From Candidatus Latescibacterota bacterium (lineage in GTDB: Bacteria > Latescibacterota > UBA2968 > GCA-2709665), in assembly GCA_965198095.1 (NCBI GenBank), contig OZ240239.1, positions 118,641 through 182,640 of the forward strand: a stretch of 64,000 nucleotides of DNA, read 5' to 3'. The notes beneath the pieces are model-generated. The model searched no databases. It worked only from the letters and a program-made list of their open reading frames with translations, and was not told where the DNA came from. Shown piece after piece: positions 19,539 to 61,157 of this stretch. Numbering within the stretch: position 1 is the first letter of the stretch; each line of letters starts with the position of its first letter. The translations under genes were made by a program, and so were the position numbers.

Positions 19539-19639
19539 TTCGCCAGCAGGAGCTGGCTCCTACCTTATGAACGGCTTGTGAATATTACCTGATTCCAAAC
19601 GCCGGTAAATCCGGTAGGAGCCGCCTCCCGGCGGCGAAC
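19539..19639. repeat. REPIN (inverted REP doublet), stems GCCAGC/GCTGGC and GCCGCC/GGCGGC
   Basis: TTCGCCAGCAGGAGCTGGCTCCTACC ...46 nt... CCGGTAGGAGCCGCCTCCCGGCGGCGAAC. Same unit as the array at 42353-42967. Confidence 0.85.
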
Positions 19640-19703
19640 ACTTCACCCCGATACTCTCAACCGACGGCCTAGAGCACCCGGATACTTGAGGCTTGGTGCT
19701 GTG

Positions 19704-19742
19704 AAATCCCCTCAATCCCTCCCTCGACGCGCAGGCTCGCTC
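19704..19742. repeat. Partial copy of the left half of the 10857-10997 element
   Basis: AAATCCCCTCAATCCCTCCCTCGACGCGCAGGCTCGCTC compared with AAATCCCCCCTGCCCCTCCCTCGACTCGCAAGCTCGCTC. Confidence 0.55.
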
Positions 19743-19913
19743 ACCTCGGTACGGCCGGGAGCCTACGCGGTGCAGGCGGGAAGGGCCTTTTTCAAAGGGG
19801 AAGGTTGCCTATTTGCTTTACGAACGACGAACAACGATCCACGATTTACTCCGCGCCTCTGCGGCGGACTATGCCTTTTCGAATCCGCAATTGAGTGGCG
19901 TTACCGGCTCTGC

Positions 19914-19941
19914 GGTACCCGTGTTTTGCTTTCCCGGTACC
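19914..19941. repeat. GGTACC-box copy 3
   Basis: GGTACCCGTGTTTTGCTTTCCCGGTACC, ending 7 nt after the stop at 19949. Confidence 0.8.
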
Positions 19942-19948
19942 AGGCCCT

Positions 19949-21517
19949 TCATCCTCGCATGGGTAGAATCCGGTAGTTGATCTCGAGGCTCAGGTCGTGG
20001 AACACGAAGTCGGTCTCGATCCCGGAATTCCGCTTCTTGAGCATCGCCTCCACCTGGTTCCAGCCCTGACGGACCCAGTCGCCTACCCTGACATCGTACC
20101 GGAGGGCATAGTTCCCGTGATAGGCATTCGGGCCGGGGCCCACCCGGTAGTGTCGGTTCAGAGCGACGAGGGCCGTCTCGGGCAGCGCCCTGCCGTTCAG
20201 CTTGAACTCGAACTCATCCTCCGAGGTCAGAGAGACCACGATCAGCTCCAGCGTTACGGCATCCAGAATGCCTCTTCTGGCAGCGGTCTCCAGGTCATCG
20301 GCCACCCGGAAACGGACCGTGGTTCCCGATCCCTCCTGCAGCGTCACCGGCAGCTGATGCTCCCATCCCGCGAAAATCGACGTCTCGTGAGGGACCCGCT
20401 TCAAGGCATCAAAAGTACCGGCGATCACATAAAGTTTGTCCTTGAACGCCAGCGTCTCCAGATCTCCGAGTTGTGACAGCACATCCGAATCATCCACGTT
20501 GTAGGTGGTCTGGTGATGGAAGTTGAACACGTAGACGCCGTCCACCCCCTGCTGCCAGGCGTTCATCGCTCCGGCGCGCAGGGCGCCCGCGGGTGGGAGG
20601 GGATGCTGGCCGGGCCCGACCTGCTCCGACGTACAGCCCAGAACGCGGCATTCCGAGTCTTTCGCGATGTCCACAAATTCCTCGAACGGCGAATCGGTCG
20701 CGCTGTCCCAGTGGGGCGCAGGGGAGATGTAGTCCACGAGCCCCTCCGCGATCCACGTCTCCAGCTCCAGACCGATGGCGTGACACTTCTCCAGGGTGAC
20801 TGGACAACGCACACCGAAACCGAGCGGGCGGGCCCGACGGTCGCCGATACCGTTCAGCTTTGTTCTGGCCTCGCGCACGTAGGCGGTCAGGATCGAACCG
20901 TTTTCAGGGAGGTTGGGCACGCTGTGTCCTGGTTCCCGCTGAAAGTCCCACTCGAACCCGTCCACGTCATAGCGCTCGCAGGCCTCCAGCACGATCGCCA
21001 GACGATGAGCGCGCACTTCAGGGATCGCATAGTTCAGACCTGTACACCGCTCGCCGTAAACGCTTCCAGGGCCGTGCAGCCCCGAACCGCACTCATCGCC
21101 CAGCTCATACTCGGGATGCTGCGCGCGAAACTCGCTCCGCCACTCGTAGCGCGGGCCGTGCAGGTCGTTGAACCGCTTCCCAACCCAGTACTGCATCCCC
21201 GCCTCGTGGGCCGCCTCCAACGCCAGCTTCCACGGATCGATCCCCTCCGCCCACAGCCGCTTCATAATCTGCTGCTGCCGCCACTCGCTCACGAAGCCGA
21301 CCTTCTCCCGCTCGATTCCCTTGGCGCCCGGGACCTCCGAAGGCCAGAGCGGCACCGCGTCGCCGAAGCCGTACATGTGACAGACCACGGCGTCCACCTG
21401 GGTGCCGATGAAGCGCCCGACCGCTTCGTAGACGAACTCCTCGGGCGTCATCGGCGGGGCGCAGTAGAGCAGAAAGCTCCCGTCGTTGTTGTAGAAGAAC
21501 TTCGGAAAGGCCACCAT
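19949..21517 (-). CDS. TIM-barrel glycoside-hydrolase-like protein, subfamily B (paralog)
   Basis: 522 aa. MVAFPKFFYNNDGSFLLYCAPPMTPEEFVY...YDVDGFEWDFQREPGH...WQQGVDGVYVFNF. Collinear with 17702-19255. Confidence 0.85.
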   Translation of the reverse strand: MVAFPKFFYNNDGSFLLYCAPPMTPEEFVYEAVGRFIGTQVDAVVCHMYGFGDAVPLWPSEVPGAKGIEREKVGFVSEWRQQQIMKRLWAEGIDPWKLALEAAHEAGMQYWVGKRFNDLHGPRYEWRSEFRAQHPEYELGDECGSGLHGPGSVYGERCTGLNYAIPEVRAHRLAIVLEACERYDVDGFEWDFQREPGHSVPNLPENGSILTAYVREARTKLNGIGDRRARPLGFGVRCPVTLEKCHAIGLELETWIAEGLVDYISPAPHWDSATDSPFEEFVDIAKDSECRVLGCTSEQVGPGQHPLPPAGALRAGAMNAWQQGVDGVYVFNFHHQTTYNVDDSDVLSQLGDLETLAFKDKLYVIAGTFDALKRVPHETSIFAGWEHQLPVTLQEGSGTTVRFRVADDLETAARRGILDAVTLELIVVSLTSEDEFEFKLNGRALPETALVALNRHYRVGPGPNAYHGNYALRYDVRVGDWVRQGWNQVEAMLKKRNSGIETDFVFHDLSLEINYRILPMRG

Positions 21518-21534
21518 TTCCTCCCAAGGTAAAT

Positions 21535-21615
21535 TTCGCCGTCCGGAGACGGCTTTCGGTTGACAGAGACGGCCGCCGTGATCGGATTCGTCGCCGTCTG
21601 GAGACGGATCCTACC
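21535..21615. repeat. Two REP-like hairpins with stem GCCGTC/GACGG(C) in direct orientation
   Basis: TTCGCCGTCCGGAGACGGC (21535-21553) and TCGCCGTCTGGAGACGGATCCTACC (21591-21615). Confidence 0.6.
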
Positions 21616-21722
21616 ATATGAATAGACGTCTGAAACGGTTCAACAACGAACCCACGGTACTCCTGTTCTGATTCCCGGGTGCTCGCCTTCACGATCCACG
21701 AACAACGGTTTTTACGATCCCC

Positions 21723-21751
21723 GGTACCCGTGTTTTGCTTTCCCGGTACCC
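21723..21751. repeat. GGTACC-box copy 4
   Basis: GGTACCCGTGTTTTGCTTTCCCGGTACCC, 17 nt after the stop at 21769. Preceded by CACGATCCACGAACAACGGTTTTTACGATCC. Confidence 0.8.
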
Positions 21752-21768
21752 GAACTAAGCCCTGCTTC

Positions 21769-24243
21769 TCACGATGCCACCCTGAACGCGTATAGCCTCG
21801 CCCCTTCCAGCACCACCTTCAGCCGGACCACCCGCCGGTATACTTCCTCCAGCCGCACCCGCTTCCATCGCACCTCGTGGGCCACGCGGTCTCCCGAGAA
21901 TGGAATACAGTCATCCAGACCCAGCTCCGGAAACAGATTGCCCTCCGCATCCTGCACCTCCACGCGGATGCTGCCGCCCGGGTCGGTCTGTCCGTTCAGG
22001 AGCAGGCGACTCCCTTCCACGACGAGGGGCAGCGTCGTGAACGTTCCTTTGGATCGGATCGGTTCCACGTGCGCGAGCCTGCCCGCCTTGCACTTCGCCA
22101 GGCCGGGCACGACACGGTGCCGCTTCGTCTCCTCGAAAAAGTCCTCCCAGCTCGTGAAAAAGGGCGCGAGCTCGAAGTAGGGGAGCTTGGCCTTGAACGC
22201 TTCCAGCGTGTCGGCAGTGAGATACCCGCCCAGCATATAACGCGTATTTGTCCCCCCGAAGGGGAACCACCACTCCTCTTCCCCGTCGGCGTTCGTGATC
22301 GGCGTGTATTCATTCAGACCGCTGGAGCTGGTATTCCAGCTCCCTATGGGTCCGTTTTCCAGAAGGGGCTTTCGATTCGCCCCGAACTTGCTCCAGTGGA
22401 TCAGGTCCCGGCTCCACAGCAGGTGCTGCCGGTTCTGCTGTGTCGAAAAGTCCCAGTTCAGCAGCGCACCCAGATAGAGCTGGCCGTCCGTGTCGCTCAG
22501 TTCCTTCCCCTCCGGCCTCAGAAACCCGAACCCGTAGAGGGTCGTACCGGGTGGATCGTGTTCGTCCGGTACCGTCTGGTGACGCCGTTCCCAGTTGAAC
22601 CCGTCCCGCGTCCACATCACGGCGCGCGTGCGGATGGCCGCCACGCTGTGCCAGAGGTAAAAGGGCAGCCCCGTGGGCGGATAGGCCGGCGCGTCCGGCC
22701 GGTAGTAATAGAAGAAGGTCTTGCTCTTCCGATCGTAAAACGTGGCCGTGGACCGGCCGCCGGCCTGGAAGAGCGCAAACGGTTCTCCCTCGAACGGATA
22801 GGTGGACGCTCGCTCGTTCGTAGACGTGAGCCTCATGCCGCGCGCGCCGGTCAGGACGGGCCGTCTCGTCAGGGCAAGGAAGGTGTCTCCCCGCCGCTCG
22901 AAGCCCCAGAACTCCCGGTGCTTCGGTTTGAATCCACCCAGGAACTGCTTCGCCGCCTCCATGTTGGCCTTCAGGAAGACCCGGAACACGAAGTTGTCCA
23001 TATCTATCGGTCCGTCCTTCTTGGGATCGTAGAACCGGTAGCGGTACTTCCTCGGAAACGGACGCTCCTTCACGAACGCCGGAAAGCTGTCGAACTCTCC
23101 CGACAACAGGAAATCTTCACCAGACTTGTCCCTCAGAATATTGTTGTTCTTGGATCCCTTGTAGTCCACGATGCCCAGGTCCGGCTTCTCCCACGTCACC
23201 CCATCGTTCGAAACCGTGAGACACAGATACCGGATCGAATACGCCGTGATCGTCGATCGCACACCCATCTTCCACAGCCGTTCGTCCTCGGTAAGCGGAC
23301 CGGCGTAATAGGTGGCGCGAAATTGTCTCGCTTCTTTGTCATACGAGAAAGAGTTGATCTGCAGCTGATCAGGCCCCTCCTCCCAGGGGCGGTCGAGCAC
23401 CGCGATCGGCCCGTCCGACAGGACCTCCAGCTGGTCGGGCGCGTGCTGGAGCCCGGAGGAGGATCCGCAGATCCAGCCGTCCACCATGTACTGGGGCATC
23501 TGCCCGACTCTCAGCGGATTCAACGGGCGCTTCGGCTTGTTGGGCGTCTCCAGGTTGATCTGGCGCACCATGTAGGGCCCCACCGCCTTGCCGCCCTGCT
23601 GGGCCCTCACGCGAAGCCAGAACTCCCCGCGTCCCCATCCCGCCCCGTCGAACGTACACCGCCGTACCTGGCCGTTCAGTTTCAAATCCAGAGGGCCCGC
23701 GAGGCGCTTGTGTCCCTTCGGGTCCACCACATCCACCTTCACCGAGCAGGTCTCTACGCGATCGGGCAGCGTCCGGATCGTGAAGGCCACCTCGGTCTTG
23801 TCGATAAACGCGGCCCGCTCCGGACAACACTCGATGAACTGCCGGAGCGAGTCCACCTGCCCCAGCTTCATCCCGCCGATATCCCCGAAGAAATCGTTCG
23901 CGTCCAGCCTCAGGACGCCCGATCCCACCCGCCTCCCGCCCGCCCTCAGCGTGAGGTCGAACCTGTAGCCACCCAGCGCCCACATCGCTCTCCCCTCGGA
24001 ATCGGTGGCCAGGCTCGGACCATACCGCCCTTCGTCCACGAGCGGATACGTGATCACGACCTCACCGCGGTCGCCCACCCGTTCGGCGTTACCGGTCAGC
24101 TCCTGTTCGAACCCATAGGGCTGCGTCACCTGGACGGTGGCTCGAACAGCCCCCGATTTGAGCCCTGAAGGCCAGCGAAACGTCAGCGCCTGCCTGAAGT
24201 AGCCCCTGTGCTCGAGCTTCAGCCTCAATCTTGACCCATTCAT
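21769..24243 (-). CDS. Large beta-propeller glycoside-hydrolase-like protein with an extra ~290-aa N-terminal region
   Basis: 824 aa. The central and C-terminal part aligns with 51668-53194 and 61192-62712, with repeated S.DG..W blades and a C-terminal ...VRLKVVLEGARLYAFRVAS sandwich. GGAGGAGG lies upstream of the ATG. No signal peptide. Confidence 0.75.
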   Translation of the reverse strand: MNGSRLRLKLEHRGYFRQALTFRWPSGLKSGAVRATVQVTQPYGFEQELTGNAERVGDRGEVVITYPLVDEGRYGPSLATDSEGRAMWALGGYRFDLTLRAGGRRVGSGVLRLDANDFFGDIGGMKLGQVDSLRQFIECCPERAAFIDKTEVAFTIRTLPDRVETCSVKVDVVDPKGHKRLAGPLDLKLNGQVRRCTFDGAGWGRGEFWLRVRAQQGGKAVGPYMVRQINLETPNKPKRPLNPLRVGQMPQYMVDGWICGSSSGLQHAPDQLEVLSDGPIAVLDRPWEEGPDQLQINSFSYDKEARQFRATYYAGPLTEDERLWKMGVRSTITAYSIRYLCLTVSNDGVTWEKPDLGIVDYKGSKNNNILRDKSGEDFLLSGEFDSFPAFVKERPFPRKYRYRFYDPKKDGPIDMDNFVFRVFLKANMEAAKQFLGGFKPKHREFWGFERRGDTFLALTRRPVLTGARGMRLTSTNERASTYPFEGEPFALFQAGGRSTATFYDRKSKTFFYYYRPDAPAYPPTGLPFYLWHSVAAIRTRAVMWTRDGFNWERRHQTVPDEHDPPGTTLYGFGFLRPEGKELSDTDGQLYLGALLNWDFSTQQNRQHLLWSRDLIHWSKFGANRKPLLENGPIGSWNTSSSGLNEYTPITNADGEEEWWFPFGGTNTRYMLGGYLTADTLEAFKAKLPYFELAPFFTSWEDFFEETKRHRVVPGLAKCKAGRLAHVEPIRSKGTFTTLPLVVEGSRLLLNGQTDPGGSIRVEVQDAEGNLFPELGLDDCIPFSGDRVAHEVRWKRVRLEEVYRRVVRLKVVLEGARLYAFRVAS

Positions 24244-24743
24244 GACGCTTTCTTCCTCCTCCTTGCGCCGTCGCGATGACGCCGTGGGCGTACAAACAGG
24301 TGATGAGATTCGGTCCTTACGATCCGAGATTCACCGGGGTGAACGACGCCCGCCGTGACTCCTGCAGGAGTTTCAGGACTTGCCTCTCCCTCCACAGCAC
24401 CTGTACATATTGAGAGCCGCGCTGCTTATGCAGGCGGCTCGCCATAGACCGCTCCTCCGCCGTTGGATCGCGCCGTTTGCGGCTGCCGGCGAGGGCCAAG
24501 ATACGGTCTGAAAATCAGGCCGTCAACCGAAAAAATTGCGCCGGATGACCCCTCCCCCGGCCACGCCCGGCCCTCAGCGCGAGAATGAAATGTCCGTGCC
24601 GAGAGAATCGGGACGTCCCGCTCTGTCGGACTCGTCTACAGACTCATCCGATGCAAGCCAACAAATCGACTCGTCTTTCGGGTGCCGCTGTCGTCGGCTA
24701 CGCTTTCCTAAAGTCACGTTACGGGACTTCGCGCAGTTTCGTA

Positions 24744-24782
24744 ATATAAGACAAGCCGCCCGGAGCAATTGCTCCGGGCGGC
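24744..24782 (-). terminator. Rho-independent terminator after the PorV-like gene
   Basis: 12-bp stem GCCGCCCGGAGC / GCTCCGGGCGGC with loop AATT, followed on the minus strand by TTGTCTTATATT. Confidence 0.7.
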
Positions 24783-24841
24783 CGCCTTATCCTTCGACTT
24801 CGACGCACCCGATCTCTCACCGGGTGCCTGCTCTGTCCGCT

Positions 24842-25888
24842 TTAGAAGGACCCGCTCACCGTAAACCGGATCGGCTTGTGGTCGAGCAGTTCATCCAGCT
24901 CAGAATACGACACGTCGGCCATGATGCTCCGACTACCGCCGAACGTGCCCTTGACACCCGCGCCCACGCTCCAGCTCTGAGCATCATACTTGAACCGGTT
25001 CCCGGCGCGCAGGGCGAGCATGTTGTTGAACCACAGCTCCGCGCCCACGTGATACCGCTGCCAGGAGTCTGTGTGATAGGCGCCCTCGAAGGCCACCGTC
25101 ACATACGTCGGGTCGCCTATGTTGCCCATCACCTCCCCGGCCAGGCCGAGGTTGAAGATCACGGGCTGAGACGACTCGAAGATGTCGATCGCGCTGACGT
25201 CGTTCCCCAGGTTCTTGATGCCCATGCCGATCCTCAGACTCTCGAACCCCGTGTGCATCAGCGTGCCCGCGCTCAGCAGCACCGCGGTGACCTCTTCGTC
25301 CAGACCCAGCTCGGACTTCACGTAACGCAGCTGGACGCCCGCCCCCAACTTGTCGGTCATCTGATAGGCATAGTGAAAACCGATGCCCGTGTCGCCCAGA
25401 TCCAGCATCTGACCCGTGCCTTCCGGGGCCAGGGACGTGGTCTGCTCGACGTCCGGAAAGCTCAGCGTGATCACCGAAAGCCCGACCACGCCGATCGGGG
25501 TGTTGACCGCAACGGCGCCCGTGCGGTAATCCATCTCGCCGAACCACCGCATCCCGCCGAACGACCACCCGAAGTTCTCGATGCCGGCGATCCCGGCCGG
25601 GTTGTAGTAGATCGCGTCCATCCCGTCCGCCACCGCCGTGAAGGCCTCACCCATCGACTCCAGTCGGGCCGTGGGCGCGATCTTCAGGAAGTGGAACGTG
25701 GACGGATTCTGCTTCGTAAAGCGATCGAAGTCCGACAACGTCTCGTCCGAGAGCGACGCCTTCGGATCGAAGGGGATGTCCTGGAAGTCTGTCGTTACGA
25801 TTTCGGCCTGGGCCCATGCCGGGGCAGATGCAAACGGGAGAGCCGCAGCCAGCGCCAGGACGGTTAGCGTGCATACAATCCATTTCAT
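24842..25888 (-). CDS. Outer-membrane beta-barrel protein, PorV/PorQ-like
   Basis: 348 aa. Signal peptide MKWIVCTLTVLALAAALPFASAPAWA. LKIAPTARLESMGEAFTAVADGMDAIYYNPAGIA motif. Alternating beta-strand pattern and a C-terminal ...FTVSGSF ending in Phe. Confidence 0.6.
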   Translation of the reverse strand: MKWIVCTLTVLALAAALPFASAPAWAQAEIVTTDFQDIPFDPKASLSDETLSDFDRFTKQNPSTFHFLKIAPTARLESMGEAFTAVADGMDAIYYNPAGIAGIENFGWSFGGMRWFGEMDYRTGAVAVNTPIGVVGLSVITLSFPDVEQTTSLAPEGTGQMLDLGDTGIGFHYAYQMTDKLGAGVQLRYVKSELGLDEEVTAVLLSAGTLMHTGFESLRIGMGIKNLGNDVSAIDIFESSQPVIFNLGLAGEVMGNIGDPTYVTVAFEGAYHTDSWQRYHVGAELWFNNMLALRAGNRFKYDAQSWSVGAGVKGTFGGSRSIMADVSYSELDELLDHKPIRFTVSGSF

Positions 25889-25928
25889 AGCGTGTTTCCC
25901 TTTATGAATGAGGTTGTTCTCGTCCGTC

Positions 25929-28280: not shown

Positions 28281-28314
28281 GGGTAAGACTCCTTCTGTGT
28301 GAATGCGCTGCCAT

Positions 28315-33403: not shown

Positions 33404-34238
33404 GGCTTCGCCAACAGAGTTGGCGATTGGATTGGCGCACCCTAAGTCGCCGTCTGTGGCTTCGCCAACAGAGTTGGCCATAGGATTGGCACATCTTAAA
33501 TCGCAATCTGTGGCTTCGCCAACAGAGTTGGCGATTGGATTCGTGCACCCTAAATCGCAATCTGTGGCTTCGCCAACAGAGTTGGCTCCTACCGGATTTG
33601 GGACGTTATGACATCGGTGAATCCAATAGGCCCAATAATCCGGTAGGAGCCGTCTCCCGACGGCGAACCATCTGATCGCAGTGTGGTGCCTCTGCTGAAC
33701 CTATGGGTGGCGATTGGATTCGTGCACCCTACGTCGCCGTCTGTGGCTTCGCCAACAGAGTTGGCTCCTACCGGATTCGGGACGTTTTGATATCGGTGAA
33801 TTCAATTCACCGGAAAATACGGTAGGAGCCGTCTCCCGACGGCGAACCATCTGATCGCGGTGTGGTGCCTCTGCTGAACCTATGGGTGGCGATTGGATTG
33901 GCGCACCCTAAGTCGCCGTCCATGGCTTCGCCAACAGAGTTGGCAATTGGATTGGCGCACCCTAAGTCGCCGTCCATGGCTTCGCCAACAGAGTTGGCTC
34001 CTACCGGATTCGGGACGTTTTGATATCGGTGAATTCAATTCACCGGAAAATACGGTAGGAGCCGTCTCCCGACGGCGAACCATCTGATCGCGGTGTGCGC
34101 CTCTGCTGAACCTATGGGTGGCCATAGGATTGGCGCACCCTAAATCGCAATCTGTGGCTTCGCCAACAGAGTTGGCCATGGGATTGGCGCACCCTAAATC
34201 GCAATCTGTGGCTTCGCCAACAGAGTTGGCTCCTACCG
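33404..34238. repeat. Hierarchical repeat array: 9 copies of a 54-nt sub-repeat interleaved with 3.5 REPINs (stems GCCAAC/GTTGGC and GCCGTC/GACGGC)
   Basis: TTCGCCAACAGAGTTGGC occurs at 33407, 33461, 33515, 33569, 33748, 33927, 33981, 34159 and 34213. Full 100-nt REPINs are at 33569-33668, 33748-33847 and 33981-34080. A half REPIN is at 34213-34238. Confidence 0.9.
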
Positions 34239-34341: not shown

Positions 34342-34380
34342 CGAAAAACAAGCCGCCCGGAGCGCCTGCTCCGGGCGGCT
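34342..34380 (-). terminator. Rho-independent terminator after the SDR gene
   Basis: 13-bp stem AGCCGCCCGGAGC / GCTCCGGGCGGCT with loop GCCT, followed on the minus strand by TGTTTTTCG. Confidence 0.75.
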
Positions 34381-35352: not shown

Positions 35353-35357
35353 GATGC

Positions 35358-41654: not shown

Positions 41655-41805
41655 CAAGCCCGGCAAATCCGGTAGGAGCCTTACCTTCGCCAGCAGGAGC
41701 TGGCTCCTACCTTATGAACGGCTTGTGAGTATTACCTGATTGCAAGCCCGGTGAATCCGGTAGGAGCCGCCTCCCGGCGGCGATCCATTCACGCCGATAC
41801 TCGCC
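41655..41805. repeat. REPIN unit preceded by a truncated half unit, flanking the RAYT 3' side
   Basis: CAAGCCCGGCAAATCCGGTAGGAGCC is joined directly to TTACCTTCGCCAGCAGGAGCTGGCTCCTACC ... CCGGTAGGAGCCGCCTCCCGGCGGCGA. Relative to array units, 37 nt carrying one hairpin are missing at a GCC microhomology. Confidence 0.85.
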
Positions 41806-41888
41806 TTGCTTGATCTTACCAATCCGGGAAAAGACACGAGAACGGCCAATCTTCTGGGGTTGCAACATATCTTTTTCTCACCGGATTT

Positions 41889-42323
41889 TCATGGATGTAT
41901 CCGATTTTCATGGATGTATCCGAGATGTCGAGCAAACGCCTCTTTGTTACGAAGCTTATGATCATAGAACCCGCGCTGCCAGAACCTTCCCGTCCTGCAT
42001 TGTAGTCTGTTGATTCCTCTAGCTGTATGGCTTCCGAATGAAGCCATCACGCTGGAAAGATCCTGATCCTCTCCCAAGGCCACGATCAAATGCAAGTGAT
42101 CAGGCATCAGGACGTATCCTTCACATCTGAGACGCTCATTTTCATGAAGCCAGCGCAAACACCGAACGATGAGCTCCGGCACTTCAGATTCCTCTTTCGG
42201 ATTCATTGGGTCGCGAACCAGTGGACCTGTAGTATCGTCCACGCACTTTGTTATGGAGTAGATGGATCCGGGCAAGGAATTACGCCATTTCCTCAGAGCC
42301 GATTGATGGAACCCTCTTTCCAT
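41889..42323 (-). mobile_element. REP-associated tyrosine transposase (RAYT / TnpA_REP, IS200/IS605-type Y1 HUH family) with a frameshifted 3' end
   Basis: 144 aa. HUH motif YVLMPDHLHLIV and RFWQRGFYDH. The catalytic-Tyr motif GYIHEN is followed by a premature stop. Removing one copy of the 19-bp duplication (41884-41921) extends the frame to TAA at 41816, giving ...YIHENPVRKRYVATPEDWPFSCLFPDW. Visibly lower GC than the neighbouring genes. Confidence 0.85.
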
Positions 42324-42352
42324 TTTTTTACACGTATCAACCGACGGCCGAG

Positions 42353-42967
42353 CTTACCTTCGCCAGCAGGAGCTGGCTCCTACCTGATGAACGGCCTGTG
42401 AGTATTGCCTGATTGCAAGCCCGGTGAATCCGGTAGGAGCCGCCTCCCGGCGGCGAACACTTCACCTCGATCCTCGCCTTACCTTCGCCAGCAGGAGCTG
42501 GCTCCTACCTTTTGAACGGCTTGTGAGTATTGCCTGATTGCAAGCCCGGTAAATCCGGTAAGAGCCGCCTCCCGGCGGCGAACACTTCACCTCGATCCTC
42601 GCCTTACCTTCGCCAGCAGGAGCTGGCTCCTACCTCATGAACGGCTTGTGAGTATTACCTGATTTTTCAAACCCGGTAAATCCGGTAGGAGCCGCCTCCC
42701 GGCGGCGAACACTTCACCTTGATCCTCGCCTTACCTTCGCCAGCAGGAGCTGGCTCCTACCTCATGAACAGCTTGTGAGTATTACCTGATTTCAAACCCG
42801 GTAAATCCGGTAAGAGCCGCCTCCCGGCGGCGAACACTTCACCTCGATCCTCGCCTTACCTTCGCCAGCAGGAGCTGGCTCCTACCTCATGAACAGCTTG
42901 TGAGTATTACCTGATTGCAAGCCCGGTAAATCCGGTAGGAGCCGCCTCCCGGCGGCGAACACTTCAC
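42353..42967. repeat. Tandem array of five REPIN units (period 125-127 nt)
   Basis: Units start at 42353, 42478, 42603, 42730 and 42855. Each unit is TTCGCCAGCAGGAGCTGGCTCCTACC + 47-nt spacer + GGTA(G/A)GAGCCGCCTCCCGGCGGCGAAC + linker. The array starts 29 nt upstream of the RAYT ATG. Confidence 0.95.
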
Positions 42968-49474: not shown

Positions 49475-49565
49475 CCAAGAATCTCCTTACCGATTCTCTT
49501 CGTCAATGACGCAATCTATTGACTATCGTTTCCTTTCTCCGGGCGTTCCCGCCTCCGCCGTCATC

Positions 49566-49619: not shown

Positions 49620-49626
49620 CTCGCTG

Positions 49627-50547: not shown

Positions 50548-50782
50548 GTCCGATACCCTCCCGCGACGATCTACAAAATACAGCCGCTCATAGCCACATT
50601 ACGCGCGATTGTCCCATCTCAACATACGGAATGTTACACTCCGGCGCGACGCAAATCGGCCCTAGTGACGAATCCTCAGCCGATCGCGCTCTACGGATTC
50701 GAACCACGCCTCCCAGTCATCCTCCGAATGGCGATCCACGATCCGGTCGTCTCTTTTGGGACACGATCGACGAGCGACAGAT

Positions 50783-51553: not shown

Positions 51554-51584
51554 TTTCACTCCTTGTATATCGCCAGTCAGAATC

Positions 51585-51606
51585 CACCGGCAGCAAGCTG
51601 CCGGTG
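51585..51606. repeat. Perfect hairpin CACCGGCAGC-AA-GCTGCCGGTG (third copy)
   Basis: Identical core to 36352-36373, followed by CCACAC. Lies 32 nt upstream of the PhyH start at 51553. Confidence 0.7.
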
Positions 51607-51667
51607 CCACACCACACAACATCGATTACGAGACTATATCACCCGCGCCACGGGCACGCTCGAGGCT

Positions 51668-53194: not shown

Positions 53195-53237
53195 ACGTCG
53201 CTCCTTTCGCCCCTTGACTCGAAACCCGAAACTGATG

Positions 53238-54773: not shown

Positions 54774-54902
54774 ATGACGACCTCGCCTTCAAAGACTGGA
54801 TACGAACAACCCGAGAAGCGCGATCCCGGTCGCGGCCAGCACACCCAGAATCAGCGGCCGACAATGTCAGTAACGCGACTGGCGATGCGGCCCTGCATAA
54901 GC

Positions 54903-55097
54903 TCACTCCTTCTCGCTCAGTTTCCGAACAACGCCTCGTCCGTTCTCAAATAGCGCCCTGCTGCATCCTCGTTGAGATCGATTTCCAATCCCGGTGTCTC
55001 CGGCACCTCCCTCCCTGGCCTGAGTGTTCGTGGGCCGCGAAAGGTAGAGCATGAAGCTTCCGTCGTTGTTGTAGAAAAACCGGGGCGGCTTCGCCAT
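54903..55097 (-). pseudogene. Remnant of a subfamily-B TIM-barrel hydrolase-like gene
   Basis: Retains GGGAGG + ATG + MAKPPRFFYNNDGSFMLY and then loses the frame. An EVPETPGLEIDLNE segment, equivalent to PTEVPGAKGIDME, appears in another frame. The rest of the ~520-aa gene is absent. Confidence 0.7.
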
Positions 55098-55214
55098 GCC
55101 TCCCTTTCCATTCGGTGATGAGAACGCCGTGATACGTAGCTCTTTCATCAGCAGAAAGACGCCGGCGGACAGGGTCGTTACCGGCGTCTTTCTGAACAGC
55201 TGGCTTCCGCTGCG

Positions 55215-55949
55215 CTATTTCTTCACTGAAAGGTCGATCATCCTGAACGCATAATCGGCCGGATATCGTGTAATATGGGTTCCCGGATCTTCGTAGTCCA
55301 GGCCTCCGCCGCGAATGACCACCTTGTAAGCGGTGTGCTCCGGACGTGTCGTGTCGCCGATTCTGAAGGTGGTCGTGTTTTCGTAGAGCCCGCTTATGAA
55401 ACTGCCTGGCACGTTGCACCCAGCCGTCATGTTGTAGAAGATGTTCTGAATTCGTTGGATGTGGTTTCGCGCCTCTTCAACCGTCTCGAAATCCGGGATC
55501 GCCTGAGTCAGCGCACTCTGGACAAAGGCATTGTGCTGCCCTTGCAGGTTGCCCACCCGCTGGCGCTTGATCAACTGCCCGGCGTGGGTCCGTCTCACCG
55601 TTTTGAGGCTTTCGCCCGGCCCCCACCAGTCCACCGTGTTGTAGTTGCTTCCAGAGCAGCCCGATCCGACGATCATAACCGAAACGATCGGTTTTTCTTC
55701 CTCAATCGTGATAGACCCGACCTCTCCCTCGATTTCCATCCCTTTGTGGTTGTATTCCAGCCAGTTTTCCACCTTCACATTCCTGTAATGAAACGGAAAC
55801 GTGTAGACGTGATGTTCCGTCTCGAACACTTCCACCTCCTGCAAGTCACCCATCTTGTCCGCGTCAGCTTCCGAGGAATAGCGGGCCAGGTTCTCTGAGA
55901 CCAGCGTGTAGTTGGGACTCCCATCTTCTCTTTCGTTCACCCAGTTCAT
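55215..55949 (-). CDS. Hypothetical protein with no family recognised
   Basis: Trimmed to MNWVNEREDGSPNY, with GAGGAG 8 nt upstream. 244 aa of non-repetitive, non-shadow composition. Visibly less GC-rich than the neighbours. Confidence 0.6.
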   Translation of the reverse strand: MNWVNEREDGSPNYTLVSENLARYSSEADADKMGDLQEVEVFETEHHVYTFPFHYRNVKVENWLEYNHKGMEIEGEVGSITIEEEKPIVSVMIVGSGCSGSNYNTVDWWGPGESLKTVRRTHAGQLIKRQRVGNLQGQHNAFVQSALTQAIPDFETVEEARNHIQRIQNIFYNMTAGCNVPGSFISGLYENTTTFRIGDTTRPEHTAYKVVIRGGGLDYEDPGTHITRYPADYAFRMIDLSVKK

Positions 55950-56094
55950 GCTGTCGCTCCTCTGTCTTCGGGTTGGAACAACGACCGAGTCTTTCTCGAA
56001 TGGTTCTCGTAAGATAGTATTGATGCTTCGAGGCGGGCCAAAAGTCAATCAGAATCCGAATTGATGGCACACTTTGGGTGACGATTCCACCGAT

Positions 56095-56985
56095 TCAACT
56101 CAGACACGCCTCGAGATATTCACGAGCCCGGTTGACCTCCACCGCCACCTCTGCTATGGGTTCCCGAATCGGAATCCCACGCGGCGCAGGATGCATGAAC
56201 ACCTCGGTCCAGCCCGCATATTCGATCTCCTTCAAGGCCGAAACAATCGGAGCGAAATCGAGCGGCCCACGGCCCGGCATCTGCAGCAAGATCTCCTCCG
56301 GCTTCAGCGCCCCGTGACTCCCTTTCCCGTGCTGCCAGGCATAGAAGAGAAACAGCTTGTCGTCGAGGTCGCGGATGAGCTGAGCGACCCGCTCAGGATC
56401 GTCCGGCAGATGATAGGGTGCGAGGGCAATGCCCAGGGGTCTCGACCCGGCGAACTCGGCCAGCCACCGCATCGAGTCGAGCGAGTCGACGATCCAGCTG
56501 GCGTGGTTCTCGATCCCGATCCGGACGCCGAGCGCCTCTGCCAGGTCCAACTGAGGCTGCTGGCGCGCCACAAACTGCTTTACGGCGCGCCTTAAGTCTT
56601 CGCCCTCCAGGTCGGCCGGTCCCCCGCTTCCGCAGACGACAAGCTCGGCATCGAATGCCCTCAAGAAACGGATCTCGTCGTCAAGACCGAAAGGGCCCAG
56701 GTCAAACCGGGTAGAGACGCCCAGCTTGACGCCGTGCGTTTCCAGCATCTCCAAAAATGCATCGTGGCCCATGGCTTCGGCCTGCTCCCGCTGGTTCCCG
56801 TGTACGCGAGGCCAAATGTCCAGATGTTTCGCCCCGACCTTTGGAACCTCGGGAAGGACCCGCGCGAGAGGGGTCGTGCCGTACAGCGAGGACGCGAGCA
56901 GATACCGGAATTGGAAGGGCGGGTCACAACCCATCTTTTTTCCCGTCGAATCGCCGGCGGTGAGGGTCAAACAGAAGGGCGGCAC
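56095..56985 (-). CDS. Sugar-phosphate isomerase/epimerase (xylose-isomerase-like TIM barrel)
   Basis: HLDIW...GVKLGV...IGIENH...EVFMHP pattern. The track start at 56985 is GTG. ATG at 56934 (MGCDPPFQFRYLLASS) is an alternative start. Confidence 0.7.
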   Translation of the reverse strand: MPPFCLTLTAGDSTGKKMGCDPPFQFRYLLASSLYGTTPLARVLPEVPKVGAKHLDIWPRVHGNQREQAEAMGHDAFLEMLETHGVKLGVSTRFDLGPFGLDDEIRFLRAFDAELVVCGSGGPADLEGEDLRRAVKQFVARQQPQLDLAEALGVRIGIENHASWIVDSLDSMRWLAEFAGSRPLGIALAPYHLPDDPERVAQLIRDLDDKLFLFYAWQHGKGSHGALKPEEILLQMPGRGPLDFAPIVSALKEIEYAGWTEVFMHPAPRGIPIREPIAEVAVEVNRAREYLEACLS

Positions 56986-57036
56986 GCGCGCCGCCCTTGA
57001 ACGGATCTTTGAACGAAATCGTGTTCGAGTCCCGCG

Positions 57037-57747
57037 TCAACCGGGCGCCGCCGGATATTCGCCGCACAGATAGCGGGTTCTTGCGACGTCCTCGTCCAGC
57101 TCGGGAAACCGGGTCATCGGTTCAAGAAAAAAATTGTCTGCCAGGTCATCGCAGACGCTGCTGACTTCCCCGCTCACGGTGTATTGCACGCCATCGACTT
57201 CGAGGCCGGTGCCCTCTTCGCCCCAGAACTGGTGAATGGTCCGCGCAGGAAGGCAGACGCTTCGGCCGGGCTCCAGGCAGACCCGGTCTCCCGGATTCAA
57301 CGCAACCGTCTGACCGTCTACCTGCAACGTAAAGGGTTCGTCCGATCGCTTCCCGTCGTCCGTCGCCTTGCAGACCTCCACGAGGATATTGCCGCCGCTC
57401 CGGTTGATGATATCCTCCCGCTTCGAAAGGTGGAAATGTGCCGGGGCGCGCTGGTTTTCAGGGTCCAGAATGAGTTTTTCCGCATAGGTCTTCGGATAGT
57501 TCGCGTTCTTGGCCGACCCGTTCCGGAGCGTCAGCAGCGTCCGACCGATTTCCTTGAACCGCCCGCTTCCGAAATCGGTCACGTCCCAGCCCAACATGCA
57601 GTCGCGAATCTCGTCGGCTTCGGGACCCTTCTTCTGCCAGTCCTCCACGTTCCAGAACGCGAACGGCGGCAGATGAAACCCGAAGTGTTGGAAGACCTGT
57701 ATCGCGGTCTCGACAGATCGCTCTATTTCAGACCGCTTTAATAGCAT
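57037..57747 (-). CDS. D-lyxose/D-mannose isomerase-like cupin
   Basis: 236 aa with KTYAEKLILDPENQRAPAHFHLSKREDIINRSGGNILVEV, the D-lyxose ketol-isomerase signature. Confidence 0.7.
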   Translation of the reverse strand: MLLKRSEIERSVETAIQVFQHFGFHLPPFAFWNVEDWQKKGPEADEIRDCMLGWDVTDFGSGRFKEIGRTLLTLRNGSAKNANYPKTYAEKLILDPENQRAPAHFHLSKREDIINRSGGNILVEVCKATDDGKRSDEPFTLQVDGQTVALNPGDRVCLEPGRSVCLPARTIHQFWGEEGTGLEVDGVQYTVSGEVSSVCDDLADNFFLEPMTRFPELDEDVARTRYLCGEYPAAPG

Positions 57748-57764
57748 TCTCTACCTCCATCGCT

Positions 57765-59270
57765 CTAGCTTTCTTTCGTCTCTCGCCTTTTAACGATCTC
57801 CGACCACGGAACGCCCTTTTCGATGTCCCTGATTTCCCGGGAGAAGGCCTCGTGGTGATAACCCGGCACGGAGGCGAACCTCACCCCTTCGGGCAGCGCT
57901 CCGTGCAGCAGCGGCGGACAAGACCGGTAGCGCAAGAGGTCCATCAGCAGGGCCTCCCGAATCTCCCGGTAGTCGGGGTCGTGCCACCTGTTGTAAATCT
58001 CTCCCGGATCCGTCCGGTGGTCGTAGATCTCGCTCTCGTCCCCTGTCAAATCGAAGGTGATGCGGAAGTCTTCTGTCCGCATCGACATGTGGTGATAGTC
58101 CTTCACGTGTTCGCATAGGACCGCCCGTTTGTTCCACTCCTCCTTGCCCAGAATCGCTGGGACGAGGCTCCGTCCCTGAACCGTGTTCGGCGTCTCAAGG
58201 CCGAGCAGTTCAGTTAGCGTCGGATAGAGATCCACAGACTCCACGAACTTGCCGAACTCCTCTCCCGAAGGCAGCCCACTCGGGTAGCGAATAATCAGGG
58301 GAACCTTGTGAACGCATTCGTAAAACCCGAGGTTCTTCCAGATCAGTCCGTGCTCACCCGCGAAGTCTCCGTGGTCGGAGGCGTAGATGACGATCGTATC
58401 TTCCAGGATGCCCTGGGCCTCCAGCTCCGCAAGCATCCTTCCGATCTGCTCATCGATCAGGGTGACGAGCGCGTAGTAGTAAGCGATACACTGTCTCAGG
58501 TGCGCGTCGTCCCTCGGCCGGTAGGGGTACCAGAGTTCGCCACGCATCGACTGCTGTTGCCGCTCTGACTTGCCCTCAAACGGGTCTTCGGCATTCGCAG
58601 GGACCGTTACCTCATCCGGATCGTAGAGGCGGTCATACGGCTCGGGCACGGTGAGCGGATCGTGAGGCCGTTCGAAACAGACGTAGGCGAAGAACGGCTT
58701 GCCTTTGTCTCGCTCGCGGAGGTATTTCACTGCCTCGTCTCCGCACCAGACCTCCATCGAGTGTTCCAGTGGCAAGGGCGACGTGACCGCGCAGTCGGGG
58801 TGCTGCTTCCATTTGCTCGTATTGTCGTAATCGTCCGCCACCCCTGCGTCAACCAGGCTTCGGAAGTAGTCGCACGTGAGCGGGTCGTCCGGCAGCGCAT
58901 CGGTGTTCGTGCTGAAACAGGTAGTGTCGAACTCTCGTCGGGGCCAGTGCACCCCGATATGTCCCTTTCCGATGAGCGCCGTCTCGTATCCGGCCTGCCT
59001 CAGGGTCGCCGTGATCGGATTCAGGTGGTCTGGCGGCTCATCGATGTTGCCGTGACGCCGATGCCAGTGTTCGTAGATCCCGGTCAGGTAAGAGATGCGC
59101 GATGGGCCGCAGTGCGCGCTGTTGGCGTAGGCCCTGGCGAATCGAATGCCCTCCCGCGCGAGCCGGTCCATGTGGGGCGTCTGGAGCAGAGGCTCGCCCG
59201 CGCAGGACATACAGCGCGCATTATGCTGGTCGCTCAGTACAAAGAGGATGTTGGGCTGTCCGGAAGCCAT
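57765..59270 (-). CDS. Sulfatase (Cys-type), no signal peptide
   Basis: MASGQPNILFVLSDQH...NSAHCGPSRISYLTG...GKGHIG...ASDHGD. Confidence 0.9.
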   Translation of the reverse strand: MASGQPNILFVLSDQHNARCMSCAGEPLLQTPHMDRLAREGIRFARAYANSAHCGPSRISYLTGIYEHWHRRHGNIDEPPDHLNPITATLRQAGYETALIGKGHIGVHWPRREFDTTCFSTNTDALPDDPLTCDYFRSLVDAGVADDYDNTSKWKQHPDCAVTSPLPLEHSMEVWCGDEAVKYLRERDKGKPFFAYVCFERPHDPLTVPEPYDRLYDPDEVTVPANAEDPFEGKSERQQQSMRGELWYPYRPRDDAHLRQCIAYYYALVTLIDEQIGRMLAELEAQGILEDTIVIYASDHGDFAGEHGLIWKNLGFYECVHKVPLIIRYPSGLPSGEEFGKFVESVDLYPTLTELLGLETPNTVQGRSLVPAILGKEEWNKRAVLCEHVKDYHHMSMRTEDFRITFDLTGDESEIYDHRTDPGEIYNRWHDPDYREIREALLMDLLRYRSCPPLLHGALPEGVRFASVPGYHHEAFSREIRDIEKGVPWSEIVKRRETKES

Positions 59271-59355
59271 GTTCGATAAAATCTCGCAGATGACACGGAG
59301 AGACGACCGATTCCATTACTAAGGAATCAGGTTTCACTGTCAAGCAGTAATTCGA

Positions 59356-59805
59356 TCATCGCTCGACTTGGACCCTCCTTGACGTGCCTTTTCTCGGAGT
59401 GACACGGACGACGCCCCGGTCCGCATCCACCACCACCCGATCCCCCGTCGCGATGGTCGAAAACGGGTCACGCTCCAGGTCCGTCATCATCGGGATGCCG
59501 TTCACGATGCACCCGAGGGCGGCCAGGCTGTCGACCTCCACGTTCACGAACGCCACCGGGGCATTTCCTTCCAGCCGGGCCAGGTTCAGCGTCATCGGCG
59601 TCCCGGAAGATCCCTTGGTCGAGCGGATCACGAGCACCCGATCCCTCAGTGATTCACCCTCCAGCGGATGTCCGGAGCCGATCACTTTCCCGGTAATCGC
59701 ATCCACCTCGCCCCAGAAAGAGAGCGTGGCGTCCGCCACCAGCGCCGTCCCCTCGGCCCTTCCCATCACCACCCCTCTGCCCTTGATTTCGATCGTCTCA
59801 GCCAT
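59356..59805 (-). CDS. Aconitase X swivel-domain subunit (DUF126)
   Basis: GRAEGTALVADATLSFWGEVDAITGKVIG..HPLEGESLRDRVLVIRSTKGSSG...APVAFVN. ATG 59805 overlaps the large-subunit stop by 8 nt (ATGGCTGA). Confidence 0.8.
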   Translation of the reverse strand: MAETIEIKGRGVVMGRAEGTALVADATLSFWGEVDAITGKVIGSGHPLEGESLRDRVLVIRSTKGSSGTPMTLNLARLEGNAPVAFVNVEVDSLAALGCIVNGIPMMTDLERDPFSTIATGDRVVVDADRGVVRVTPRKGTSRRVQVER

Positions 59806-61051
59806 CTCCCATCCACTTCCCGGCAACGGCCGCCCGAATGCACGGTTCGGTCTCCGCGATAATCATTTCTGCCCCCAGCATCCCCCGGGCATAATGCGCC
59901 TGTTTGAACCCGTGGGTTACGATGCGCTTGGCCGGGATCCGCATGTTCGTTGGGCAAGTGTCGCACAGGATCCGGCCGCCCGCAGCCTCGATCGCCTCCG
60001 TGTATCCCATCGCGTCCGCGTTCCCCTTGGTTCCCCGGGCCGTATCCACCCAGAGCCTCACCCCCTGGGCGATCTTTTTCCCCCTCAGTAGGCCAGCAAT
60101 CTCAGAAATTTCCTGGATAGACGCGTGAGGACAGCCAAGGATCACGGCGTCGATTTCGTCTCCGGTGTGGGTCCGAAGCGATTCATAGGTCTCCCTCAAG
60201 GCGGCATCGTCAAACACCGTCTCGGGCTCGGGCACATCGCCCTGAAACGCGGCCTCCAGTGTGGGAGCCTCGGGCGTCACGCCCGCGATGTGACACATCG
60301 TCACGCCCCCTGACGTCGCGAGCGCGGCGCACAGCTGCTTCGCCTCATCCTGTGACGGGCGTTCCACGCCGTTGAACACCGGAATACCCAAACCAGCCAA
60401 CTTTCCCGAATAGTAACCGAGCGCCCCCCAGTCCGTCGGGCTGTCCAGGTCTGCGGTCACGTCGATCCGCAGCGTCCCCTTCCGGTTCTCGTCCAGTAGG
60501 ACACCGAACTCGGGTACCAGTCCTAGAAGCGACGCCGCGATCGCGCTCTCCGTCCCGTGCCGCACGGTTCTCGCCCCCAGGATCGAGTTGGCGTAGACCA
60601 CCGCTGAAGACTCGGTCCAGGCGCAGACCTCCCCCTTCAGCGGAACGTTTCCGACGAGATACGGCGCGCACGTGAACGTCGGGATGAATCCGGCCTCAGC
60701 CGCCATGTCTGCCAGTTCCTTCTGCATCCGCACCTGCTCCGGATCGTTTTCAGGCACATCCTGATGGCCCTCCAGTGTGACGAAAGCGGCGTGGACTGTG
60801 CAGGTGCATCCCGGGTGCGTCTGGTGCGCGCAGGCCTCCTTCAGATCTTCCATATACCGGTCGAGTGTTTCCCGGGAAGCCCCTCTGGCCATCAGGTTGG
60901 GAACCGGCAGCAGCGCGTGCGTGTTCTCCACGCGCACCAGCCGCTGCGCACCCATCGCCTCGCCCCACGCGACCAGCCAGCGCATGCACTTGGCCAGGTA
61001 GTCGCCCTTGGCGCCGTCCAGAATGGCCTGCTGTTCTTCAGTAAGATCCAT
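59798..61051 (-). CDS. Aconitase X catalytic subunit (DUF521); the family includes cis-3-hydroxy-L-proline dehydratase
   Basis: 417 aa with N-terminus LTEEQQAILDGAKGDYLAKCMRWLVAWGEAMGA..LV.V...H and conserved Cys positions. Paired with the DUF126 gene. Confidence 0.7.
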   Translation of the reverse strand: MDLTEEQQAILDGAKGDYLAKCMRWLVAWGEAMGAQRLVRVENTHALLPVPNLMARGASRETLDRYMEDLKEACAHQTHPGCTCTVHAAFVTLEGHQDVPENDPEQVRMQKELADMAAEAGFIPTFTCAPYLVGNVPLKGEVCAWTESSAVVYANSILGARTVRHGTESAIAASLLGLVPEFGVLLDENRKGTLRIDVTADLDSPTDWGALGYYSGKLAGLGIPVFNGVERPSQDEAKQLCAALATSGGVTMCHIAGVTPEAPTLEAAFQGDVPEPETVFDDAALRETYESLRTHTGDEIDAVILGCPHASIQEISEIAGLLRGKKIAQGVRLWVDTARGTKGNADAMGYTEAIEAAGGRILCDTCPTNMRIPAKRIVTHGFKQAHYARGMLGAEMIIAETEPCIRAAVAGKWMGDG

Positions 61052-61084
61052 ACGACTCTAATTTTCTTATCACCAGAGTAACAA

Positions 61085-61157
61085 TCGCCGCCGGGAGGCG
61101 GCTCCTACCGGATCAATGAGTGCGATGTATCTGGTAGGAGCCAACTCCCGTTGGCGA
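61085..61157. repeat. Short-spacer REPIN with mixed stems (GCCGCC/GGCGGC and GCCAAC/GTTGGC)
   Basis: TCGCCGCCGGGAGGCGGCTCCTACC ...23 nt... GGTAGGAGCCAACTCCCGTTGGCGA. Confidence 0.85.

Follow-up and report, generated by a model that had tools for sequence, protein, structure and literature searches.

The closest described counterparts of the repeats considered here are the GTAG-1/2 repetitive extragenic palindromic (REP) sequences of Di Nocera, De Gregorio and Rocco (2013), which have extra unpaired bases after the GTAG and a 3-bp tail (PMC3733652). Most GTAG REP families fall into sub-families with alternative complementary stem residues, and they include heterodimers with different stems that were suggested to escape hairpin-processing enzymes (PMC3733652). 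In Pseudomonas fluorescens SBW25, each family of REPINs (inverted REP doublets) adjoins its own REP-associated tyrosine transposase (RAYT) gene (PMC3116915). Bertels and Rainey described compensatory changes, tandem clusters, two alternative folds and RAYT frameshifts (PMC3116915; bioRxiv 10.1101/2021.07.10.451892), and REPINs decay once the RAYT has been lost (bioRxiv 10.1101/2021.07.10.451892). A genome with group 3 RAYTs commonly encodes several distinct ones (PMC5581495). For group 3 TnpA_REP, the GTAG is needed for cleavage, a loop base for binding, and the stem must be unbroken (Corneloup et al. 2021, PMC8266576); complementary stem swaps have only mild effects, and genomes often hold several REPtrons, that is, RAYT genes flanked by their own REPs (PMC8266576). 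Here we describe such repeats in a 64,000-nucleotide stretch of DNA from a Candidatus Latescibacterota bacterium (contig OZ240239.1, positions 118,641 to 182,640; hereafter the window), where REP hairpins of four stem classes, called AG, GC, AA and GT after their two variable stem pairs, accompany a frameshifted RAYT gene.

Our interpretation, to which we give a probability of roughly 85%, is that the four classes represent the two arms of two sister GTAG-REP/REPIN families, each with its own RAYT in related strains. It builds on the anatomy of the repeats, their covariation, the homology of the RAYT, the linkage of RAYT lineage to stem class in several genomes and polymorphism between strains, all of which we observed here. 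In each unit, GTAG and GA would be followed by a 6-bp stem, perfect and rich in G+C, which encloses a loop of TCCN or TCT, and then by a 3-bp tail of GA and one further base (A, T or C); the units would be organised in inverted doublets and in tandem arrays resembling bacterial interspersed mosaic elements (BIMEs), all within REPtrons. Type I would combine an AG arm and a GC arm with the paralog that we call RAYT-1, and type II an AA arm and a GT arm with RAYT-2.

Much of this is shared with the GTAG-1/2 REPs of, for example, Pseudomonas putida and P. entomophila: the unpaired GTAG, the two extra bases, the perfect G+C-rich stem, the small loop and the 3-bp tail, as well as dimers with the GTAG inside or outside, heterodimers, tandem clusters and repeat-flanked RAYT genes. 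Among the matches listed, GGTAGGAGCC...GGCGAA was found in REPs of P. entomophila, P. massiliensis, Ectopseudomonas, Rhodanobacter and Marinobacterium. The differences lie in the hosts, which are proteobacterial for GTAG-1/2 REPs; in the loops, which have 3 nt in the Pseudomonas matches whereas a 6-bp stem here carries a conserved 4-nt TCCN loop; and in the doublets, which here, unlike in the GTAG-1/2 families, are exclusively heterodimers (22 of 22 in the sample examined).

A mismatch-tolerant census of the window with class consensus sequences, together with direct reading of the loci, recovered 30 hairpin copies: seven AG (GCCAGC/GCTGGC), eight GC (GCCGCC/GGCGGC), five GT (GCCGTC/GACGGC) and ten AA (GCCAAC/GTTGGC), a count that covers these 64 kb. 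The original prediction, an earlier reading of the same DNA, had distinguished these four classes and had placed the repeats correctly. They stand far above chance, since GGTAGGAGCCNNC with at most one mismatch gave 25 matches against 1.17 expected by chance and GCCNNC-N4-GNNGGC gave 25 against 3.15. Each REP unit measures 25-26 nt with a 6-bp stem, and so falls within the 20-40 bp usual for REPs. It had further been claimed that only the inner stem pairs vary and that they always remain Watson-Crick; variation is indeed restricted to stem pairs 4 and 5, but pairing is not quite complete, 179 of the 180 stem pairs being Watson-Crick and the sole exception a T.C outer pair at 21590-21615.

The prediction was less exact about the remainder of the unit. 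It had nearly all copies fitting one written formula and differing in the stem only, but about half fit exactly, and loops (TCCT, TCCC, TCT, TCCA and TCCG), tails (GAA, GAT or GAC in all 30 copies) and heads vary too. GTAG followed by GA is present in 24 of the 30 copies, two of them, in the array at 42359-42959, reading GTAA (head GGTAAGA). The six headless copies, those without GGTAGGA, begin at 21535, 33407, 33461, 33515, 33927 and 34159, and the five of class AA among them occupy 54-bp tandem units. All nine AA copies in the array at 33407-34237 have the 3-nt loop TCT (GCCAAC-TCT-GTTGGC) and not the 4-nt loop assigned to them. The two copies at 21535-21615 do deviate as described, one in its flank and the other in one stem base. 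The prediction is partly confirmed, in that its core observation was right and some of its details were wrong. All REPs lie within five intergenic gaps, where seven loci had been counted, between co-directional genes on a crude map of open reading frames (ORFs) that places 40 of the 42 ORFs on the minus strand. The features, by position in the window, are these:

19539-19638: isolated type I REPIN, with an AG arm at 19539-19564 (minus strand), a 48-nt spacer and a GC arm at 19613-19638 (plus strand)
21535-21560, minus strand: headless GT hairpin, GCCGTC TCCG GACGGC GAA, in which ACCGAAA replaces GGTAGGA
21590-21615, minus strand: GT REP with the sole broken pair, TCCGTC/GACGGC, loop TCCA and tail GAC
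33407-34237: type II array of nine AA copies (minus strand) and three GT copies (plus strand)
41671-41680, plus strand: truncated REP head GGTAGGAGCC that runs straight into the linker found between units, TTACCTTC
41686-41784: type I REPIN downstream of the RAYT gene, with an AG arm at 41686-41711 (minus strand) and a GC arm at 41759-41784 (plus strand, tail GAT)
41816-42323, minus strand: RAYT-1 pseudogene, a frameshifted Y1 transposase
42359-42959: five type I REPINs in tandem, repeating every 125 bp
61084-61158: short-spacer doublet, with a GC arm at 61084-61109 (minus strand, tail GAT), a 23-nt spacer and an AA arm at 61133-61158 (plus strand)

As the original prediction had noted, the doublets join different classes: AG with GC seven times, AA with GT three times and GC with AA once. 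The arms stand about 48 nt apart in types I and II and 23 nt apart in the short-spacer doublet. The GTAGGA heads of the REPIN at 19539-19638 point inward, and this REPIN is also present in L250, the one conspecific locus compared at this site. In the tandem array at 42359-42959 the AG arms (minus strand) begin at 42359, 42484, 42609, 42736 and 42861 and the GC arms (plus strand) at 42432, 42557, 42684, 42809 and 42934. The array at 33407-34237 contains headed AA copies at 33569, 33748, 33981 and 34213, headless ones at 33407, 33461, 33515, 33927 and 34159, and GT copies (plus strand) at 33642, 33821 and 34054, the last forming three AA+GT inverted doublets with spacers of about 48 nt. The 54-bp tandem units that hold the headless AA hairpins lie at 33404-33586, 33887-33998 and 34119-34230; in them the 7-nt head is replaced by four variable bases (GATT, CATA, AATT or CATG on the plus strand). 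The copies at 21535 and 21590 are direct repeats and do not form an inverted doublet. Tandem duplication periods of 125, 54, 179 and 233 bp were found among the copies. Repetition also extends outside the doublets (19639-19673, 42337-42358 and the array linkers), with CTTACC on the left and GAACACTTCACCYCGATMCTC and TCAACCGACGGCC on the right, sequence that resembles the linker of the related contig OZ252100.1; thus the repeated unit is larger than two hairpins, as in BIMEs.

Covariation, which had been proposed as a check, is evident both in the window and beyond it. The 13 distinct window sequences have 98.7% of their cells paired versus 84.8% in shuffles, and their covariation score of 0.423, against 0.129, was reached by none of 500 shuffles; slid-structure controls were 15-53% paired. 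Since many copies are tandem duplicates, what the window offers as independent evidence is about four compensated changes of a stem pair and not some 30 copies. A metagenome scan with the pattern GGTAGGAGCNNNCTCCNGNNNGCGAA, which leaves three stem pairs and one loop base free, gave at least 131 matches. Among the 131 listed, 120 (92%) have all three free pairs Watson-Crick, compared to 1.6% by chance, and these fully paired matches contain at least 18 distinct cores. The 44 distinct metagenome sequences have 98.1% of cells paired, with a covariation score of 0.631 versus 0.130 in shuffles and slid controls that were 25-40% paired. The other 11 listed copies (about 8%) carry one or two non-Watson-Crick pairs, which include G:T in seven of the 11, and one match, GCCAGC...GTTGGC, is an intermediate between AG and AA. 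A pattern applied to genome contigs, GGTAGGAGCCN{9,10}GGCGAA, was too loose, the matches listed being mostly unpaired chance ones in high-GC actinomycetes. The claim that conservation acts on the hairpin structure and not on the stem sequence is well supported.

When a doublet is folded as single-stranded DNA, its minimum-energy structure is a long hairpin between the arms (-25.8 to -29.4 kcal/mol, z -4.1 to -6.0). The doublet at 19539-19638 reaches -29.4 kcal/mol (z -5.9) and that at 61084-61158 reaches -25.9 kcal/mol (z -5.8), while the direct pair at 21535/21590 gives z -1.7 and is not a REPIN. The long hairpin opens into internal loops precisely at the variable cores, since it is there that the arms differ; hence the covarying structure is the local REP hairpin, and the asymmetry of the arms is itself conserved. 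In copies with a 4-nt loop, for example at 19613-19638, the GGAG of the head is complementary to CTCC (the innermost stem C plus the loop TCC), so that the main stem has a competitor in a second hairpin of 4 bp, GGAG-N4-CTCC.

The REPIN at 41686-41784 and the array at 42359-42959 enclose the Y1 transposase gene at 41816-42323 (minus strand), which thus has AG/GC REPs on both sides in a REPtron arrangement. A perfect 19-bp tandem duplication at 41884-41923, spanning the Tyr136 codon (41916-41918), breaks the frame. With one duplication copy removed, the gene encodes a 162-aa REP-associated tyrosine transposase with an HUH motif (H76-L-H78) and the catalytic Tyr136. The repaired protein matches Pfam Y1_Tnp (PF01797, E=8.9e-8), NCBIfam NF047646 (REP_Tyr_transpos, 115 bits against a cutoff of 80) and PDB 4ER8, the Escherichia coli TnpArep (E=1.7e-11), with the HUH and Tyr motifs aligned. 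Its best database homolog is a 162-aa protein of 80% identity on OZ252100.1, a Candidatus Latescibacterota chromosome assembled from metagenome data (its locus is L120 below), where the gene order is the same as in the window: Fe-ADH, RAYT, cyclase, 3HCDH and onward.

Two better-known systems invite comparison. In E. coli, the BIMEs (REP types y, z1 and z2; PMC3333891, PMC3479197; PDB 4ER8) likewise have REPs that alternate in orientation and type and a RAYT flanked by REPs. The array at 42359-42959, an (AG,GC)x5 arrangement, resembles a BIME-2, and RAYT-1 is homologous to the E. coli TnpA_REP; however, the palindromes of E. coli REPs are imperfect and need a bulge, whereas the stems here are perfect and shorter. 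IS200/IS605 insertion sequences (ISs) likewise use an HUH/Y1 enzyme and have subterminal hairpins with a 5' guide tetranucleotide and non-identical left and right hairpins. Unlike in these elements, the gene here is not carried with the repeats, and the repeats far outnumber it. The RAYT-1 locus was considered as an IS200/IS605 element and rejected as such, since repaired RAYT-1 scores 20.9 bits on the IS200 model NF033573, below the cutoff of 55.

Four conspecific assemblies, retrieved by exact-protein matching, are about 99% identical to the window in DNA (98.4-99.8% over the compared stretches); comparisons with these strains and with relatives cover about ±10 kb around known genes. Two of the assemblies, fetched as four loci (L244 and L248 from one, L247 and L249 from the other), contain an intact RAYT-1 whose protein is 100% identical to the repaired one, so that the frameshift in the window is strain-specific. 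In L245, RAYT-1 and the whole array are deleted and one GC/AG doublet is left; in L246, a DDE_3 IS splits RAYT-1, whose N-terminal half is 10% diverged. The size of the RAYT-1 array also differs by strain, with five doublets in the window, five in L247 and three in L244. The GTAAGA head occurs in two of the five GC arms of the tandem array in the window (42557 and 42809), in four of five in L247 and in three of three in L244. Judging from GTAG mutants in the literature, these copies may escape cleavage and may spread through duplication of the unit alone.

A second paralog occurs in the same strains. RAYT-2, of 161 aa and 55% identical to RAYT-1, is intact at L249:11397-11882 and L248:11798-12283, a site orthologous to the window's array at 33407-34237, with AA and GT copies on both sides; its stop codon overlaps the head of an AA-class REP (TGG TAG GAG CCAAC). 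No trace of RAYT-2 coding sequence was found in the window, while the flanks are more than 99% identical; what stands at 33407-34237 is therefore the remainder of a RAYT-2 REPtron that has lost its RAYT. The first homolog search did not return the conspecific RAYT-1 and RAYT-2, and absence from its list is not evidence that paralogs are lacking.

The two paralogs keep to their own stem classes. RAYT-1 (100% identical) sits only among AG+GC doublets in L244 and L247, and RAYT-2 only among AA+GT doublets in L248 and L249. An orthologue of RAYT-1 on TARA contigs (77% identity) is accompanied by GC and AG arms, and that on OZ252100.1 (80%, syntenic site) by AG, GC-like and new GCAGCC-class copies; an orthologue of RAYT-2 in another genome, L251 (74% identity, syntenic site), has GT and AA copies alongside. 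Among more distant RAYTs (31-53% identity), every one is accompanied by an arm pair of its own (GCAGAC/GCAAAC+GTCATC, GCAACG+GCAAGC, GCGGTC+GCGACC or GCCAAC+GCCGAC), with the GTAGGA head, TCCN loop and GA-N tail kept. At all loci examined, head-to-head doublets join two different classes, 22 times out of 22, and the partner pairs recur. AG and AA are one transition pair apart, as are GC and GT, from which it follows that the two families are sister REPINs.

The original prediction had proposed a single recognition system serving all four classes, and had suggested looking for a separate RAYT for each. The linkage of each paralog to its classes contradicts the former, which is not supported; as to the latter, the search yielded one paralog for every two classes. 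The idea survives in a narrower sense, in that a given RAYT goes with two stem classes, which form the arms of its doublet. Put in full as a rival explanation, the idea is that a single RAYT reads GTAGGA plus any perfect hairpin and mobilises all four classes, stem identity being neutral. The head, closing pairs, TCCN loop and tail are common to all classes, complementary stem swaps are only mild in group 3 TnpA_REP (PMC8266576), the doublet at 61084-61158 joins GC and AA arms, and class AA is also found beside a RAYT only 53% identical to RAYT-2. We nevertheless hold it to be unlikely, given that the two paralogs lie within conspecific strains each in arrays of its own two classes only, that the class pairings are retained with orthologues in other species and that partner classes are fixed throughout the head-to-head doublets.

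The reading of two sister families finds a close parallel in the REPIN-RAYT systems of P. fluorescens SBW25 and P. chlororaphis (PMC3116915, PMC5581495, bioRxiv 10.1101/2021.07.10.451892), which likewise comprise inverted doublets that fold into a long hairpin, several families, every one adjoining a RAYT of its own whose place on the chromosome is fixed, tandem clusters, presence/absence and frameshift polymorphism of the RAYT, and decay of REPINs after its loss. Unlike there, the arms of every doublet here have different cores, which produces the internal loops in the long hairpin, and two families stand one base pair apart per arm. Decay is suggested by L246, where five of the ten REPs at the IS-disrupted RAYT-1 locus carry a single uncompensated mismatch, compared to none of 31 in the window, L244 and L247 together (Fisher p=3e-4); some of these mismatches have been propagated by duplication of the unit. 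The pattern would fit REPIN decay after RAYT loss. The orthologue in L250 of the window's broken copy at 21590 reads GCCGTC and has a perfect stem.

The mismatches in L246 bear on a further explanation, in which compensation is mainly mutational and not the outcome of selection. Intrastrand template switching (quasipalindrome correction), or conversion between arms, would copy a hit on one arm to the other and yield a perfect stem automatically. Template-switch correction of quasipalindromes is an established process, and two features of the data agree with it: the class differences are mostly single transition pairs (AG/AA and GC/GT), and intermediates with one G:T or mismatch make up about 8% of the metagenome copies (11 of 131 listed), among them the AG/AA intermediate described above. 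Such a process leaves unexplained the invariant head, loop and tail, the differing arms in all 22 doublets, and the build-up and spread of mismatches where the RAYT is disrupted. It can also coexist with selection. As the main cause of compensation we consider it improbable, to about the same degree as a single RAYT for all classes.

A little less likely again is a host function at the level of RNA or DNA (stabilisation of mRNA 3' ends, attenuation or protein binding) that keeps the hairpins, with the RAYT incidental. The copies are intergenic between co-directional genes, which means that the REPs are probably transcribed; folded as RNA, the doublets are very stable (-48 to -56 kcal/mol, z -6 to -8), G:T wobble variants are present, and such roles have been reported for REPs (PMC3733652). 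Yet no T-run follows the hairpins at the loci read directly, on which ground we rejected a reading of the REPs as intrinsic terminators, and Rfam at the gathering threshold matched no family in the whole window. Copy number and presence differ among strains that are about 99% identical, up to total loss of an array, and the families follow the RAYT paralogs. That the classes are unrelated repeats with flanks alike by chance can be dismissed, since spacers and outer linkers align across copies and species, counts exceed those of shuffles 20-fold, and one set of head, loop and tail surrounds at least 18 different cores.

Several points weigh against the reading of two sister families, each with its own RAYT. 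Class is not one-to-one with RAYT lineage, as the GC+AA doublet at 61084-61158 and the AA copies beside the RAYT 53% identical to RAYT-2 demonstrate. The argument from decay concerns one strain (L246) and one locus. Insertion polymorphism of a single REPIN was not seen between the compared strains, which differ only by changes in array size and by REP-to-REP deletions. Finally, the RAYT may belong to either group 2 or group 3: perfect stems fit group 3 (PMC8266576), while the only structural match is to a group 2 protein, that of E. coli.

The exceptional doublet at 61084-61158, whose AA arm (61133-61158) has the 4-nt loop TCCC and the tail GAC, may have a simple history. Its spacer aligns with that of a GT+AA doublet, also with a 23-nt spacer, beside the RAYT-2 site in L120, and L251 has this doublet beside its RAYT-2 orthologue; from this alignment with a sister species, the GC arm may represent an independent change from GT to GC.

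The L120 locus offers further observations. A 138-aa Y1 gene beside its GT+AA doublet was considered as a second RAYT and rejected: it encodes an IS200/IS605 TnpA, with 77 bits on NF033573 (cutoff 55) and a score below the RAYT-model cutoff. L120:19570-19986 and, in a genome closely related to OZ252100.1, L251:1583-2068 have identical flanks, including the GT+AA doublet, around the IS200/IS605 TnpA (138 aa) and the RAYT-2 orthologue, respectively, which looks like the swapping of one Y1 gene for another at a REP-marked site. Upstream of the RAYT-1 orthologue, at L120:9715-9765 and 9875-9925, lie two GC-like REPs with insertions of about 26 nt in the loop, each insertion with its own small hairpin. 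A further REP type, at L120:26 (plus strand) and 180 (minus strand), has a GTGGGA head, the stems CCCGAC and CCGGTC, the similar loops TCCA and TTCA, and an unchanged GAA tail.

Elsewhere in the window, a G+C-rich inverted repeat, GCCGCCCGGAGC-GCCT-GCTCCGGGCGGC, at about 34347-34378 downstream of adh_short, forms a terminator-like stem unrelated to the REPs. Adjacent ORFs of similar size, apparently tandem paralogs, occur at 7705-10887 (527/525 aa), 11039-15337 (682/674 aa) and 17702-21517 (517/522 aa), and the last pair flanks the REPIN at 19539.

How the two sister families might be maintained is suggested by the characterised enzymes. By homology with TnpA_REP, the HUH/Y1 enzyme would bind the folded single-stranded REP, with the unpaired GTAG positioning cleavage. 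Changes in the central stem pairs would be tolerated only if the stem stays perfect, and we propose that replicating copies consequently remain perfect and that changes of class appear as compensated pairs. Head, loop, closing pairs and tail would be fixed as contact or guide elements. Indeed, the needs of group 3 activity (a loop base, GTAG and an unbroken stem) match the pattern of conservation here, and the REPtrons of Stenotrophomonas maltophilia and Marinomonas sp. MWYL1 (PMC8266576) likewise have short perfect palindromes after GTAG and several REPtrons per genome; the S. maltophilia REPs differ in their 8-bp stem and 3-nt loop. Arrays would expand and shrink by recombination between units. 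With RAYT-1 frameshifted and RAYT-2 deleted in this strain, the local copies are recent relics.

It is tempting to speculate, and we do so tentatively, that the stem core (2-3 bp) and the loop length form a specificity code that keeps paralogous RAYT-REPIN systems orthogonal, that one compensated transition per arm founded the second lineage and that the difference between arms is selected. If this were true, a change from AG to AA and from GC to GT would have sufficed for a lineage that replicates only with its own diverged RAYT, and the arm difference would be selected for, e.g., separate folding of the hairpins or avoidance of long perfect palindromes. The natural RAYT knock-outs in the same species (frameshift, IS insertion and deletion) would make such a code directly testable.

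Taken together, our findings reveal no new kind of element or mechanism, and all of them fit the known REP/REPIN-RAYT paradigm. Stem sub-families have already been published for GTAG REPs (PMC3733652), so that the added value is modest and lies in two minimally different sister REPtrons and in the natural knock-outs. They add a REP/REPIN-RAYT system from Latescibacterota-like assembled genomes, a lineage that has received little study and is probably uncultured, and show that one scaffold of GTAGGA, TCCN loop and GAA tail recurs widely in metagenomes, combined with many different stem cores. The locus presents a compact natural experiment, with two RAYT paralogs that are 55% identical, cognate hairpins that are one base pair apart per arm, and strains of one species with intact, frameshifted, IS-disrupted and deleted RAYT alleles. 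Such a system could help to define which features of a perfect-stem REP are read by TnpA_REP, and at what pace REPs decay after loss of the enzyme.

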